A stretch of 43,235 nucleotides of DNA, taken from a virus. Taxonomy: Duplodnaviria > Heunggongvirae > Uroviricota > Caudoviricetes. The position numbers were made by a program, and so were the translations under genes. Below the pieces are notes generated by a model. The model was not told the origin of the DNA. It did no database searches and saw only the letters and a list, made by a program, of their open reading frames with translations. Numbering within the stretch: position 1 is the stretch's first letter; each line of letters begins with the position of its first letter. Positions 34,122 through 36,701 of the stretch are shown piece after piece. Location of the stretch: the IMG/VR virus record IMGVR_UViG_2645727669_000018. The stretch is one strand, 5' to 3'.

Positions 34122-34374
34122 GGTTCACCTCCTGTTCCTGTGGTTTAAACCCATTCTGGTTTTGGCTAGATTGAAAACGTGCCGGATAAAGAATCTGCAT
34201 TTCGCTGACTTCACCCTTAAAAAAATTGGCTAAACGTTCTGCAAGCTCGATAGATGGAATCTGCTCCAGCCTCTCAATACGACTCAACGTCGCTGGATTG
34301 ACTTGAACACCCGCAGCAACATGCTGCAAAGTGAAACCATGCGCCTTACGCACATTTCGTAATGGTGATTGCAT
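34114..34374 (-). CDS. cro: Cro-like HTH repressor
   Basis: 86 aa HTH protein (HGFTLQHVAAGVQVNPATLSRIE) divergent from cI; GGAGG SD 5 nt upstream. Confidence 0.8.
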   Translation of the reverse strand: MQSPLRNVRKAHGFTLQHVAAGVQVNPATLSRIERLEQIPSIELAERLANFFKGEVSEMQILYPARFQSSQNQNGFKPQEQEVNRG

Positions 34375-34471
34375 ATGCCCTCCAAATATTGCGCGTTATG
34401 CATGTTATTTCACGCAATTATTTTGCGCAAGTTGATTTGCTTATCACGCAATAAAGAAATGTAATAAACGC
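34375..34471. promoter_or_regulatory. Immunity control region (divergent promoters and operators)
   Basis: 97-bp cI-cro gap with at least three TTGCGC/GCGCAA-type dyad motifs (attgcgcgtta, cacgcaattattttgcgcaa, tcacgcaataaa); candidate PR TTGCGC-17-TAACAT on minus strand. Confidence 0.6.
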
Positions 34472-35164
34472 ATGAACATAGGAAACCGAGTCAGACAACT
34501 TCGCCAAGCGAAGAACATGAAAATCGCCGATCTCGCTGAAGCGATAGGAGTAGATGCGGCGAACATCTCGCGCTTAGAAACGGGTAAGCAAAAACAATTT
34601 ACCGAACAAACACTGAGTAATATTGCCAAGAGCTTAGGTGTTGATATTGCTGATCTCTTTACCTCTGCCCACAAAAGTAATACTGTATATAAAAACAGTA
34701 ATAATGAGGATGTTGCGCAGGTGAAGGATGTGTTCCGTATTGAAATGCTGGATATCAGTGCCAGTGCGGGAAATGGCCTTATCCAGGGCGGTGATGTCAT
34801 TGATGTGATTCATGCCATCGAATACAGAACTGATAATGCTGTATCAATGTTCGGCGGACGACCAGCCAATCACATCAAAGTTATCAACGTTCGTGGGGAC
34901 AGTATGTGTCCAACCATTGAGCCAGGAGATCTCATCTTCGTTGATGTCAGCATCAATCAGTTTGATGGTGATGGTATATATGTCTTTGGTTTTGATGATA
35001 AAATATACGTTAAAAGACTTCAAATGATTCCTGACAAACTGCTGGTGATTTCTGATAACCAGATTTACCGTGAATGGGGAATTACTAGCGAAAACGAACA
35101 CCGATTCATGGTCTTTGGAAAGGTCTTAATCAGTCAGTCGCAAACCCTTAAGAGACATAATTAA
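34472..35164 (+). CDS. cI: cI-type repressor (HTH plus S24 LexA-like peptidase domain)
   Basis: N-terminal HTH; C-terminal GDSMCPTIEPGDLIFVD with catalytic Ser and downstream VKRL Lys (Ser-Lys dyad). Confidence 0.9.
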   Translation: MNIGNRVRQLRQAKNMKIADLAEAIGVDAANISRLETGKQKQFTEQTLSNIAKSLGVDIADLFTSAHKSNTVYKNSNNEDVAQVKDVFRIEMLDISASAGNGLIQGGDVIDVIHAIEYRTDNAVSMFGGRPANHIKVINVRGDSMCPTIEPGDLIFVDVSINQFDGDGIYVFGFDDKIYVKRLQMIPDKLLVISDNQIYREWGITSENEHRFMVFGKVLISQSQTLKRHN

Positions 35165-35183: not shown

Positions 35184-35208
35184 GGCCACCGAAAGGTGGC
35201 TTTTTATT
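35184..35208 (+). terminator. Rho-independent terminator after cI
   Basis: ggccacc-gaaa-ggtggc followed by ttttt, 20 nt after the cI stop. Confidence 0.65.
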
Positions 35209-35218
35209 ACCTATAAAT

Positions 35219-35255
35219 TTGCATATCTCGCAAATATCACTTGCATATCTCGCAA
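35219..35255. repeat. Two 15-bp direct repeats TTGCATATCTCGCAA (candidate operator/PL-type sites)
   Basis: Identical copies at 35219-35233 and 35241-35255; each an imperfect dyad TTGC-N7-GCAA; at the start of the leftward operon. Confidence 0.45.
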
Positions 35256-35462
35256 TTTAATTTTATCTTTTGTTCCAGACCAACTACAGGATTACAACAA
35301 AATCTGGTTGCAACACGGTGCATGTGTCGTAAGCAGTCAGTAAATGTCAAAAACGAACAGGCAGGACGCCCACGAAGTAGCCGCCTGGGGCATATGAAGT
35401 CCAGGATGATTCGTTGAGTCATGTTGTGCCACTAGGCACTCATGTTAAAGCAGGTGTATGAA

Positions 35463-35738
35463 ATGAAAGTCCAGATTTTAAACAATAACTGTGAAGTCGT
35501 TTGGTCATACGACATAGCCGCCCCTGTAGATCAGAGCGGCGATAGCTGGACCAATGGGAAACATCAGATTATGGCTGGAGTTGTGTTCTCTTTACGCCGT
35601 GCTTTGGAACAGGCTGAAGTATTTCCATCAGACCCTGAATGGAAATGGCCTTTTTCTATTTGTCCAAATTCGGAGAGCACATTTCAGAAAATTGGTCAGA
35701 AAGTCGCACTCGAAGAGCATCAGCCAACTGTTTCCTGA
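35463..35738 (+). CDS. Hypothetical protein (first gene of leftward operon)
   Basis: 91 aa from ATG 35463 with AGGTG SD; overlaps a convergent minus-strand ORF. Confidence 0.4.
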   Translation: MKVQILNNNCEVVWSYDIAAPVDQSGDSWTNGKHQIMAGVVFSLRRALEQAEVFPSDPEWKWPFSICPNSESTFQKIGQKVALEEHQPTVS

Positions 35739-35901
35739 TTTTTTCAGGTAACTCGTCGGCATCGCAGAAACAACAACGCTCGATCATGTTGAAAGCCGAT
35801 TCGTAGAACTGTTTCTGCTGAGTGTCGCTGAGACAGGAAAAGAGCGACGTTACGATGATTTTATTAATTGCATTATCAAGTTCTTTTTCATCAAAAGTCA
35901 T
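35656..35901 (-). CDS. Hypothetical protein (antisense to leftward operon)
   Basis: 81 aa; AGGAA SD 5 nt upstream; contains CCFC motif; convergent overlap of 83 nt with 35463-35738. Confidence 0.3.
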   Translation of the reverse strand: MTFDEKELDNAINKIIVTSLFSCLSDTQQKQFYESAFNMIERCCFCDADELPEKIRKQLADALRVRLSDQFSEMCSPNLDK

Positions 35902-36156
35902 TTGATTTTCCTTTTATGTATACGGGCTTAAAAGGATACCACCGAGCCTGAAGTGGTGAAAAGACAGGCACATAACAGCTAAGTATTTTCAACCAGAGAG
36001 AATCCTTAGCGTTGTGGTGAATGCGGCTCAGCGCACGCGGGTTAAGGTTGAGGCTGACAGTCGACCTTCTGTGGATACCCACCCGTCTGGTGTGCAACCT
36101 TCGCCAGGCACCGGGAGGCACCCGGCACCACAACTTTATGCTGTGTGTAGTCCTGG

Positions 36157-36289
36157 CGGTACCAGTTTGTACCCTTGCTTCCGGCTGGTACCGTCCTTTT
36201 TACAAAACAGAGAAGAGCATCACCGGACGACGGGCTCATAACCCAATCCATCCGGGCGGCTGCCACCGCAGGTGTTCTTCTCTGTTTTG
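36157..36289. other. Highly structured GC-rich non-coding region (two long inverted repeats)
   Basis: 9-bp IR cggtaccag/ctggtaccg (36157-36193) and 14-bp perfect IR caaaacagagaaga/tcttctctgttttg (36203-36216 / 36276-36289); local ORFs are Arg/Pro/Cys-rich and look non-coding. Confidence 0.45.
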
Positions 36290-36338
36290 TGGAGAAACTA
36301 ATCGGCCTTGCAGGGTCGATATGATGAGGAGCAGCAAA

Positions 36339-36701
36339 ATGGCTAGCGAACGCAGTACTGATGTGCAGGCATTTATCGGGGAGCTGGACGGCGGCGTATT
36401 TGAAACCAAAATCGGCGCAGTTCTCAGTGAAGTCGCTTCCGGTGTGATGAACACGAAAACCAAAGGTAAGGTCTCACTCAACCTAGAAATCGAACCATTT
36501 GATGAGAACCGTGTGAAAATCAAACACAAACTCTCATATGTTCGCCCGACTAACCGCGGGAAAATTTCCGAAGAAGACACCACCGAAACGCCGATGTATG
36601 TCAATCGCGGTGGTCGCCTGACTATTCTGCAGGAAGACCAGGGACAATTACTGACTCTTGCCGGTGAACCTGACGGAAAACTCCGCGCAGCAGGTCATTA
36701 A
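36339..36701 (+). CDS. Hypothetical protein
   Basis: 120 aa from ATG 36339 (GAGGAG SD); the longer ORF-track version 36021-36701 is rejected because its N-terminal 106 codons lie in the structured GC-rich region. Confidence 0.55.
   Translation: MASERSTDVQAFIGELDGGVFETKIGAVLSEVASGVMNTKTKGKVSLNLEIEPFDENRVKIKHKLSYVRPTNRGKISEEDTTETPMYVNRGGRLTILQEDQGQLLTLAGEPDGKLRAAGH

Follow-up and report, generated by a model that had tools for sequence, protein, structure and literature searches.

Composition, repeats and coding potential of the block

Phage SfV has an annotation blank ahead of yfdP in its early operon. The window, by which we mean the whole stretch of 43,235 nucleotides of viral DNA that was analysed, is 99.8% identical to phage SfV, and the block itself is present in 2785 of 5426 complete E. 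coli genomes, that is, in about half of them. An earlier note, made from the sequence alone, had described a GC-rich block from 35940 onwards in a leftward operon. In window coordinates the operon runs rightward, on the + strand, and all the RNA elements of the block were assigned to this strand. The GC content in 200-nt windows is 0.54-0.585 over 36000-36399 and 0.38-0.46 in the flanks; the description as GC-rich holds for 36000-36300. The first ~33 nt (35940-35972) belong to a separate element on the minus strand. Both inverted repeats that had been pointed out were found. The first, a perfect 9-bp repeat with a 19-nt loop at 36157-36165/36185-36193, can be extended to 11 bp (36155-36165/36185-36195) and is then followed by TTTTT at 36197-36201. 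The second, given as 14 bp with a spacing of about 60 nt, has arms of 25 nt each (36202-36226/36266-36290) that are 84% complementary; their outer 15 bp are perfect, and the two perfect stretches are ~59 nt apart. One more repeat had escaped notice: it is 9 bp long and perfect, lies at 36011-36019/36126-36134, and is the closing helix, P1, of an RNA domain.

A program lists a 75-aa ORF at 36014-36241 and an upstream extension of the yfdP frame from 36021, neither of which is conserved. If the block encoded a small protein, it would be this 75-aa ORF as the counterpart of E. coli K-12 YmfH, because RefSeq annotates ymfH across the homologous e14 region and overexpressed ymfH scored as a retron toxin trigger in a retron-Sen2 assay (bioRxiv 10.1101/2020.06.22.160242). 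However, homologues of the block differ by indels of 1, 1, 2, and 22 nt, and the K-12 and SfV ORFs are in different frames owing to a 1-nt deletion. The homologous region of ST64B has stops in all three frames, substitutions are distributed over the codon positions as 9/14/15, that is, without third-position bias, and the 75-aa ORF matched neither a Pfam nor a PHROG family. Moreover, RNA covariation is found in those very columns. No reading frame is kept among the homologues, as the description of the block as ORF-poor had implied, and the coding reading of the ymfH-like ORF was dropped on account of the indels, the stops, the lack of codon bias and the lack of a family. It is contradicted by these data and we regard it as extremely improbable. 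By comparison with SfV, E. coli K-12 "ymfH" is a decayed copy of the SfV-type RNA locus.

A pseudoknotted STnc100-type domain

When the whole window was searched with Rfam at gathering thresholds there was no match, and the two families that concern us here, STnc100 and DicF, were seen only in E-value mode. The matches of the block to both are below the Rfam cut-offs. STnc100 (RF02076) aligned over its full length (model positions 1-206), starting at 35981, with 41.2 bits and E=2e-7 in a search of 801 nt, the cut-off being 47 bits. The score is plausibly below the threshold because P2 has G-C in place of C-G at three of its pairs. A covariance model built here, R1, gave 84.3 bits (E=1.3e-18) at 36011-36134, its sole match in the window, and gave 80 bits in bacteriophage P1, which was outside the training set. 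This domain of 124 nt on the + strand is made up of P1 (36011-36019/36126-36134), P2 (36023-36027/36033-36038, with A36035 bulged), P4 (36085-36092/36102-36109), P5 (36111-36115/36121-36125, with the loop AGGCA) and a pseudoknot between 36044-36050 (AAGGUUG) and 36095-36101 (CAACCUU). In P1, P2, P4, and P5, 92% of the cells are paired against 38-49% in slid controls, and there are 108 two-sided changes. The structured RNA that had been suggested for the block is thus upheld by the R1 score and by covarying helices.

The pseudoknot was tested free of alignment because the MAFFT alignment lost the register of its strands. It was seen with more than 12 different complementary sequence pairs, the complementarity being 7.67 nt for cognate and 6.05 nt for non-cognate strands, a value reached by none of 5000 permutations. 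A local hairpin of 36044-36051 with 36061-36068 is an alternative to it. This pseudoknot is missing from the Rfam STnc100 model. The domain is conserved across prophages of Enterobacteriaceae and Erwiniaceae. More than 120 viral contigs contain the 22-mer CACCGGGAGGCACCCGGCACCA without a mismatch, and for the 22-mer at 36109-36130 shuffles give an expectation of 0 matches. Among the loci that were checked, most score at or above the STnc100 cut-off, and 9 of 12 loci with this 22-mer have STnc100 matches at 54-165 bits. Relatives of the domain are known as RNAs: STnc100_4 has been detected on a Northern blot (PMC5331693), EcOnc27/sRNA103 is an Hfq-bound RNA (PMC12711010), and the stability of PasD depends on Hfq (PMC8550237).

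A DicF-like module that ends in a terminator

The domain is followed by a module at 36135-36203 (+ strand) that consists of a single-stranded linker with a conserved UGCUGUGUGUAG at 36139-36150 and, in the MFE fold, an intrinsic terminator with the stem 36155-36165/36185-36195 and the U-tract 36197-36201. A termination element had been among the suggestions for the block, and the 9-bp repeat is indeed an intrinsic terminator with an 11-bp stem and U5; its position is kept in other phages, which have different stems and a U-run there. A simple terminator scan missed it because of the 19-nt loop. A classical attenuator, another suggestion for the block, would pair alternatively with the terminator; this is unlikely from the sequences compared, as the terminator stem varies freely between homologues while the upstream domain is constant, and no segment complementary to a terminator arm was found.

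The Rfam DicF model (RF00039) matches 36142-36196 weakly, with 15.7 bits and E=1.5 against a 48-bit cut-off. Copies of the Qin type score 72-77 bits and three loci score in between, namely, L142 with 41.1 and L189 and L145 with 38.1 bits. These intermediates share GCUGUGUGUAGUC-UGGCGG with the SfV window, and an invariant UGGCGG.A.CAGUU is common to the SfV module and Qin DicF, so that homology of the module to DicF can be traced through them. The seed is another matter. The 5' 14 nt of the SfV module differ from the DicF seed, whose targets are ftsZ, xylR, pykA, and manX, and hence the DicF targets cannot be assumed for SfV. The UGCUGUGUGUAG seed type is found in SfV, in e14 and in two Rac/Qin-like IMG/VR viral contigs (L142 and L189); within the window, neither a further copy nor a complement of it was matched above chance level. 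Of the readings that had been put forward, a small RNA is the best. The block matches the STnc100 and DicF families, though below the cut-offs, and is thus a divergent representative of prophage small-RNA families already known, not an element of a new kind.

The second inverted repeat is part of a long hairpin with a 24-bp outer stem at 36198-36294 (+ strand). This 97-nt hairpin lies within a 148-nt fold of 36198-36345 that has an MFE of -61.9 kcal/mol (z = -5.3) and is equalled by none of 200 shuffles. In 10 homologues 94% of its cells are paired, 4 pairs being changed on both sides, and it accompanies the module ahead of different genes (yfdP, xisE, and others). The corresponding position in Qin is held by the 21-bp closing stem of a second domain. 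The long hairpin would exist in read-through RNA only, where it may serve as an RNase III site or as a structure in the 5' UTR of yfdP. After it come, on the + strand, a small hairpin (36301-36320), the Shine-Dalgarno sequence GAGGAG (36327-36332) and the start codon (36339-36341) of yfdP, the product of which matches phrog_204 with E=1e-49.

Helix P0 and the origin of the transcript

Inverted-repeat searches and covariation also revealed a helix, P0, at 35970-36016 on the + strand, with the 5' strand 35970-35984 (CACAUAACAGCUAAG) and the 3' strand 36005-36016 (CUUAGCGUUGUG). An equivalent helix of ~20 bp with differing sequences is present in ~20 lineages, bacteriophage P1 included, with z = -5 to -8 against shuffles; the window's own P0 is shorter and has two bulges. 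The search across relatives used a loose pattern, and many false sites in GC-rich contigs were disregarded. The last 6 nt of P0 double as the first 6 nt of the P1 5' strand. The overlapping P0/P1 columns pair both ways, in 96% and 97%, and changes in them are compensated in both partners. An (A/G)UGCUCUC motif that precedes the domain in many relatives, considered as a boxA/NusB-type site, was rejected as such: the motif was recognized as the 3' strand of the covarying P0, and the boxA-like GUGCUCUC of relatives is absent from the window.

P0 is a predicted RNase III processing helix. E. coli MG1655 has DicF species of 190 nt and 53 nt, the 5' end of the former being made by RNase III, with the site mapped at positions 813/814 in the numbering of that study, and that of the latter by RNase E (bioRxiv 10.1101/2023.04.14.536235). 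The Qin-like locus on which we mapped the 190-nt form (L237) is from E. ruysiae; over 221 nt it shows 100% identity with a dicB-annotated locus of E. coli. There, P0 is at 638-657/700-718, a related domain at 714-828 and DicF at 844-899; a stretch of 190 nt that finishes at the 3' end of DicF would begin at 710-712, inside the 3' strand of P0. Thus, in L237, the 5' end of the 190-nt form (same preprint) maps onto the P0 helix.

Since P0 covaries widely, the RNA must start upstream of 35970, and this favours an operon transcript. A putative early-left promoter, pL, was read from the sequence at 35219-35269 (+ strand), beyond the limits of the reported block; the cI terminator (35184-35201) immediately precedes it. 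This promoter has two copies of an operator-like repeat, TTGCATATCTCGCAA (35219-35233 and 35241-35255), with a -35 element TTGCAT at 35241-35246 and a -10 element TATCTT at 35264-35269. The layout of cI, terminator, promoter with operators, and leader is the same in cdtI and ST64B. The block transcript would likely originate at this presumed pL.

The element that overlaps the beginning of the block faces the other way. At 35936-35972 on the minus strand lies a conserved lambdoid element, a hairpin plus AAAAGACAGGC, of which 33 nt are 94% identical to lambda 34394-34426 (an unannotated gap upstream of the ral/orf28 ORF) and which also matches P22 and many other phages. A terminator-like hairpin was called within it on the minus strand at 35957-35938. 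In relatives it is always directly upstream of a minus-strand gene, here the 81-aa gene (phrog_3311) at 35901-35659. Judged by this position, it probably serves that gene as promoter or 5' leader and lies outside the RNA element.

The alternative to an operon transcript is a stand-alone STnc100-type small-RNA gene, expressed from the prophage by its own promoter at ~35961-35989 and not processed from the pL transcript. Many canonical STnc100 copies do have a consensus promoter with its transcription start at P1 (for example, TTGACA-N18-TAAATT), the Rfam alignment begins at 35981, and SfV has a weak promoter-like site, aaGACA-17-TATtTT, at 35961-35989. However, a consensus promoter scan called none on the + strand and so did not call this site, no promoter was found between pL and the domain in cdtI, ST64B, and L012, and the conserved covarying P0, whose 5' strand is at 35970-35984, puts the functional start further upstream. 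In Qin, an operon transcript is cut into the DicF forms, and primer extension gave no internal promoter (bioRxiv 10.1101/2023.04.14.536235). We therefore consider a separate gene unlikely for SfV, and our preferred reading, which we hold to be probable, is that the block is a non-coding part of the repressor-controlled early operon that specifies two linked parts, a pseudoknotted domain of the STnc100 family and a DicF-like small RNA that has a terminator of its own.

Antitermination and sensing

A strong terminator ahead of xis and int raises the question how lambdoid phages that have no N pass it. The domain could be a cis-acting processivity or antitermination RNA, like HK022 put, that lets polymerase pass 36155-36201 and later terminators to yfdPQR, xis, and int. 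It lies in the leader of repressor-controlled early-left operons before one or two strong terminators (for example, in cdtI, ST64B, L012, and L149) and, like nut and put sites, precedes unrelated first genes. Among 63 distinct SfV-type copies 19 have no terminator within 320 nt, and in the terminator-less copies that were inspected the domain is directly before an ORF. The e14 genes ymfJ, ymfH, xisE, and intE are listed as one co-regulated set, which would need read-through (PMC12132413). An N-like protein was absent from the SfV early genes: when 15 early ORFs were compared with Pfam and PHROG, three of them matched nothing at all and none was N-like. Nor was a boxB-type hairpin found, so that the earlier suggestion of a nut-like element is not upheld. 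An Arg-rich ORF in the pL leader (35322-35417) was tried as an N-like peptide and rejected, since it matches no family and ST64B has no start codon there.

On the other hand, a terminator follows within 320 nt in 92 of the 96 canonical family members, at a median distance of 54 nt, many of the members lie behind a promoter of their own, and relatives are seen as discrete RNAs that end at the terminator (PMC5331693). With efficient antitermination these terminators and discrete RNAs are hard to reconcile. In Qin, transcripts longer than ydfABC-dicF were not detected (bioRxiv 10.1101/2023.04.14.536235). Neither sequence nor structure resembles the put RNAs of HK022 and HK639: no motif of the domain is in the HK022 genome, the putL-like RNA of HK639 (34187-34312) is unrelated, and R1 does not match. 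Thus, a put-like function is improbable, about as much so as a separate promoter.

A further reading is a sensor of the riboswitch kind: the domain would respond to a ligand or host factor, and the choice of P0 or P1 would set processing, termination or downstream translation. The fold resembles an aptamer in that it is closed by a helix, has a pseudoknot, and keeps junction and loop nucleotides invariant; P0 and P1 cannot form at the same time, and changes in the strand they share are compensated in both partners; and a motif like the P1 5' strand (GUGUGUGGAG) recurs beside the Shine-Dalgarno sequence in Pantoea and Buttiauxella loci. However, the class of the downstream gene is inconsistent, many copies are terminated small RNAs, the three-way covariation comes from two or three events only, and the P0/P1 overlap is explained more simply by RNase III cleavage. 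We therefore think a sensor very unlikely. A broader proposal, which we put forward as a speculation with a small chance of being correct, is that the pseudoknotted domain does more than support a small RNA and is an active module that, for example, binds RNA polymerase or a host factor or senses a signal, the P0/P1 switch setting a DicF-like stop against read-through to the recombination and excision genes. Lambdoid phages that lack N would then have a replacement for it made of RNA only, and a single class of RNA would comprise STnc100, PasD, the 190-nt DicF precursor, and K-12 ymfH (perhaps ydfC too).

Proposed pathway for the SfV RNA

Based on the operon reading, we propose that transcription would start from pL near 35276 and proceed through orf33 into the block. 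RNase III would cut in P0 (35970-35984/36005-36016), freeing the P1 5' strand so that the 124-nt domain can close. Most polymerases would halt at the terminator (36155-36201), giving an RNA of ~192 nt with an STnc100-type domain and a DicF-like tail, from which a cut by RNase E in the AU-rich linker (~36135-36140) would give a DicF-like RNA of ~65 nt. The presence of P0 and the match in size of the long form (~192 nt) to the 190-nt DicF suggest this processing, and the cleavage sites and RNA sizes given here are predictions by analogy with Qin. The ~65-nt RNA would have a single-stranded seed, UGCUGUGUGUAG, followed by a terminator hairpin and a U-tail, as is typical of small RNAs that base-pair in dependence on Hfq; by analogy with Qin, dependence on Hfq and a function in trans would be expected. 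Transcripts that read through would carry the 24-bp stem (36198-36294) ahead of yfdP-yfdQ-yfdR...xis-int; the terminator would therefore also insulate yfdP...int from the immunity region.

A defined RNA locus takes the place of the blank in the SfV annotation and of the doubtful protein gene ymfH of E. coli K-12. The STnc100 and DicF families, which are separate in Rfam, are now linked, and the 190-nt form of DicF and STnc100 have a common domain architecture with a pseudoknot and an RNase III-type entry helix that are not in the Rfam model. DicF-type RNAs act on cell division, metabolism, and virulence, and the second seed type, UGCUGUGUGUAG, points to an uncharted set of targets.

Comparison with known systems

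Lambda has nutL and an RNase III-sensitive hairpin in its N leader. The SfV block is like this leader in that it closely follows pL, precedes the first early-left genes, and has a long RNase III-type stem, and differs in having no boxA, boxB or N protein. With the put sites of HK022 and HK639 it shares being a cis-encoded structured RNA upstream of terminators in the pL operon of a lambdoid phage without N; however, put RNA, whose suppression of termination depends on the zinc-binding domain of the RNA polymerase beta' subunit, is ~70 nt with two stem-loops, whereas the SfV domain extends over 124 nt, is closed by a helix and contains a pseudoknot, and members of its family end at their own terminators.

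STnc100 (RF02076), which has also been detected as EcOnc27/sRNA103 and is apparently related in structure to PasD1/PasD2, has the same core GGUGAAU, P2 hairpin with GCG, P4, P1 closing helix, and invariant CCGGG-AGGCA-CCCGG hairpin as the SfV domain, and is likewise prophage-borne with a terminator downstream. The SfV copy differs by its score below the gathering threshold (41.2 against 47 bits), by the three G-C instead of C-G pairs in P2, by its DicF-like tail, and by its place ~735 nt into an operon transcript behind P0, whereas many canonical copies come directly after their own promoter.

The closest system is dicBF of the Qin cryptic prophage, reported by Faubladier et al. 1990 according to the citation in bioRxiv 10.1101/2023.04.14.536235. 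The SfV seed is UGCUGUGUGUAGUC and that of DicF is UUUCUGGUGACGUU, the hairpin loop and 3' arm are unlike, and SfV scores 15.7 bits against the 48-bit cut-off. Furthermore, the invariant P5 hairpin is kept in the SfV domain and missing from the upstream domain of Qin, the next gene is yfdP in SfV and dicB in Qin, and the downstream stem is a plain hairpin in SfV and a second domain in Qin. On the other hand, both lie in a repressor-controlled, pL-like early operon and have UGGCGG.A.CAGUU in the 5' arm of the hairpin, and the predicted long form of ~192 nt in SfV corresponds to the 190 nt observed for DicF. The order is also the same: the Qin-like locus has the minus-strand gene with the conserved element, P0, the domain, DicF, terminator, long stem, and dicB, and in both a long helix, a ~120-nt domain, a linker, a small RNA with an intrinsic terminator, and a long stem precede the gene. 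From this match in architecture, it is probable that the block corresponds in SfV to the region of dicF in the dicBF operon of Qin, within a cI-repressed early-left operon.

Gene order of the locus

The GC-rich block (35940-36338, plus strand) lies in a segment, 35900-36345, that is 99.8% identical to Shigella phage SfV in reversed orientation; SfV positions below are window coordinates. Upstream are cI (34472-35164, plus), its terminator (35184-35201, plus), orf33 (35442-35738, plus) and a convergent 81-aa gene on the minus strand (35901-35659), and downstream are yfdP (36339-36701) and then yfdQ, yfdR and further genes to xis and int, all plus. Immediately 3' of the cI terminator, at 35219-35269, are two copies of TTGCATATCTCGCAA and a promoter-like TTGCAT-17-TATCTT, which is probably pL of the early-left operon. 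The order cI, terminator, promoter with operators and leader is common to the window and phages cdtI and ST64B. Conservation with ST64B and with a Pantoea-like contig extends over about 60 nt of the pL leader (35355-35414, GAACAGGCAGGACGCCCACGAAGUAGCCGCC...GGAUGAUUCG), and an Arg-rich 31-codon ORF over this segment showed no conservation as an ORF. The convergent orf33 and 81-aa gene overlap by 83 nt (35656-35738), as ymfJ and ymfI do in E. coli K-12 e14, and therefore pL transcription is antisense to the minus-strand gene. A 33-nt element at 35940-35972 (a hairpin and AAAAGACAGGC) is 94% identical in lambda (34394-34426), P22 and many lambdoid phages, always just 5' of a gene oriented opposite to pL, and in some relatives it has a promoter-like TTTACC-16-TATACT.

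The block is non-coding

The earlier note described the block as GC-rich and ORF-poor with two inverted repeats, and this holds. The GC content is 0.54-0.585 over 36000-36399 against 0.38-0.46 in the flanks, and a repeat search found both repeats and a third, perfect one (36011-19 / 36126-34). A conserved coding frame was looked for and is absent, because SfV, e14 and ST64B have indel differences of 1, 1, 2 and 22 nt across the block, ST64B has stop codons in all three frames, substitutions at codon positions 1, 2 and 3 number 9, 14 and 15, and the 75-aa ORF of the block has no family match in Pfam or PHROG. As the same note suggested, the block operates at the RNA level: although diverged, it belongs to two prophage RNA families already described, STnc100 and DicF, which are probably joined here as one processing unit. 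The suggestion that it is nut-like did not hold. What is new here is the link between the two families, a pseudoknot, an entry helix, P0, and the reading of ymfH as an RNA locus in place of a protein gene.

An STnc100-type domain with a pseudoknot and an entry helix

At gathering thresholds, Rfam gave no match anywhere in the window. In E-value mode the full STnc100 model (RF02076) aligned to 35981-36203 with 41.2 bits (E=2e-7), which is below the Rfam cut-off of 47 bits. The 22-mer CACCGGGAGGCACCCGGCACCA (36109-30) has exact copies in more than 120 IMG/VR contigs; nine of the 12 loci with it that were scanned have STnc100 matches at 54-165 bits, often in tandem and adjoining tRNA genes, and among these loci the SfV-like subtype falls under the cut-off. 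Helices P1, P2 (with a bulged A), P4 and P5 of the domain at 36011-36134 are supported by RNAalifold and pair counting on an alignment of 37 diverse copies. Pairing in this alignment covers 92% of cells, compared with 38-49% once the partners are slid, 108 cells have two-sided changes, and none of 500 shuffles matched the observed pairing values. Three C-G pairs of P2 are G-C in the SfV subtype, which plausibly accounts for its low Rfam score. Our own covariance model of the domain, trained on this alignment, detects it just once in the window (84.3 bits, E=1.3e-18) and also detects copies outside its training set in phage P1 (80 bits, ban operon), HK639 (late region), ST64B and e14.

A pseudoknot joins the P4 loop to the segment directly 3' of P2; in the window it consists of AAGGUUG (36044-50) paired with CAACCUU (36095-101). 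This pseudoknot is kept in more than 12 unrelated sequence pairs across the family, and complementarity is 7.67 nt for cognate against 6.05 nt for non-cognate partners, a value reached by none of 5000 permutations. The pairing is absent from the STnc100 Rfam consensus line as displayed for the model. In the SfV MFE fold a local hairpin (36044-51 / 36061-68) competes with it; in ST64B this hairpin is weaker and the pseudoknot still perfect.

Directly 5' of the domain is the long helix P0 (35970-84 / 36005-16 in the repeat search), the 3' strand of which extends into the first six nt of helix P1. The shared GUUGUG has two pairing partners, an upstream CACAAC (96% of cells) and the 3' strand of helix P1 (97%), and both compensate the few changes in it (G to A, U to C). 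P0 is found in about 20 lineages including phage P1, with differing sequences and z = -5 to -8; its 5' strand is 37-137 nt upstream in the lineages tabulated, and directly 3' of a conserved AGACAGGC element in several loci. The conservation of P0 implies that the functional RNA starts upstream of 35970, which favours transcription as part of the operon rather than from a local promoter.

Expression has been reported for STnc100 copies (PMC5331693) and Hfq binding for EcOnc27/sRNA103 (PMC12711010), and PasD, a structural relative of STnc100, is Hfq-dependent (PMC8550237; bioRxiv 10.64898/2026.05.13.724894).

DicF-like tail, terminator and long hairpin

Downstream of the domain is a DicF-like tail. 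The sequence of a related locus, used as query, matched E. coli regions annotated as dicB, and in Qin-like loci a DicF match of 72-77 bits is followed directly by an SfV-type domain and then by dicB. Three intermediates, among them the Rac/Qin-like viral contigs L142 and L189, and also L145, score 38-41 bits and the window has a weak match of 15.7 bits at 36142-36196 (all Rfam); UGGCGG.A.CAGUU is common to all three groups. A distinct 5' segment, UGCUGUGUGUAGUC, is common to SfV, e14, L142 and L189, and in other phages it is 4-8 nt upstream of terminators with quite different sequences. The 9-bp repeat of the earlier note is the terminator of this tail, an 11-bp stem with U5. In five Pantoea/Mixta loci (L286, L253, L268, L243, L278) a 10-nt GUGUGUGGAG, similar to the 5' strand of helix P1, immediately follows the domain and recurs where the first gene has its Shine-Dalgarno; in SfV, the linker UGUGUGUAG and UUUUGUGGAG 3' of the long hairpin each resemble one half of it.

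The second repeat folds as a long hairpin (36198-36294), a 24-bp stem around two small hairpins. The 148-nt fold 36198-36345 has an MFE of -61.9 kcal/mol (z = -5.3), and the hairpin is 94% paired across 10 homologues, with two-sided changes at 4 pairs. Because its 5' arm begins inside the terminator U-tract, it forms in read-through RNA only; by analogy, we propose it as a candidate RNase III site. Domain, terminator and hairpin form a module that extends to about 36300 and precedes yfdP, xisE and other genes, and in Buttiauxella the domain is directly 5' of yfdP without terminator or hairpin.

SfV has no recognisable N protein, yet this strong terminator precedes yfdPQR, xis and int, and therefore we considered that the domain itself has a put-like role. 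This is unlikely, as no similarity was found between put RNAs and the domain, family members terminate at their own terminators, and no long dicBF transcript was detected in Qin (bioRxiv 10.1101/2023.04.14.536235).

Distribution and other copies

The block is present in 2785 of 5426 complete E. coli genomes, and the SfV-type domain in Escherichia, Shigella, Citrobacter, Klebsiella, Raoultella, Enterobacter, Lelliottia, Buttiauxella, Pantoea and Mixta. A terminator follows within 320 nt in 92 of 96 canonical STnc100 copies (median 54 nt) against 44 of 63 SfV-type copies; the other 19 have none within that distance, and the examples inspected directly precede an ORF. Canonical STnc100 often forms tandem arrays of two or three units that each have a terminator of their own (loci L018 342-1038, L007, L024, L034 and L227 44363-44985), adjoining phage tRNA genes between Q and the lysis genes. 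The unannotated copy in the phage P1 ban operon (L125 2502-2625 = AF234172 ~70078-70201) has its own P0 and is flanked by upl and tciA; the same operon contains an annotated dicF-like region and three tRNA genes. A third variant in phage cdtI (L228 1376-1488), missed by both Rfam STnc100 and our model, keeps P1, P2, P4 and the pseudoknot and is without the invariant P5 hairpin.

The K-12 e14 gene ymfH (L002 4076-4390), annotated as protein-coding, lies on a decayed copy of the RNA locus and is reassigned here as such. In this copy the invariant hairpin has lost 1 nt and carries a G-to-A change, and the ORF is not in frame with that of SfV. Triggering of a retron toxin by an overexpressed ymfH clone has been reported (bioRxiv 10.1101/2020.06.22.160242) and might be an RNA effect.

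Comparison with Qin dicBF

The order of elements in L237, a Qin-like locus of E. ruysiae, matches that of SfV: a minus-strand gene and conserved element, P0 (638-657 / 700-718), a related domain (714-828) that differs in being without P5, a linker, DicF with its terminator (844-899), and 3' of DicF a 21-bp stem closing a second domain, followed by dicB. The domain without P5 may underlie the ydfC ORF call. The second domain, of SfV type, fills the gap of about 170 nt between dicF and dicB (L237 894-1060); it is found in 4645 of 5426 E. coli genomes, and its closing stem ends about 15 nt before the dicB Shine-Dalgarno. In MG1655, DicF species of 190 and 53 nt are cut from a transcript starting at the pL-like dicBp, with RNase III producing the 5' end of the former and RNase E that of the latter, and an internal promoter was not found (bioRxiv 10.1101/2023.04.14.536235). 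In L237, 190 nt upstream of the DicF 3' end is 710-712, inside the 3' strand of P0 at the domain edge. By the same arithmetic, the putative cleavage sites in SfV would yield a long RNA of about 192 nt (~36010-36201) and a short RNA of about 65 nt.
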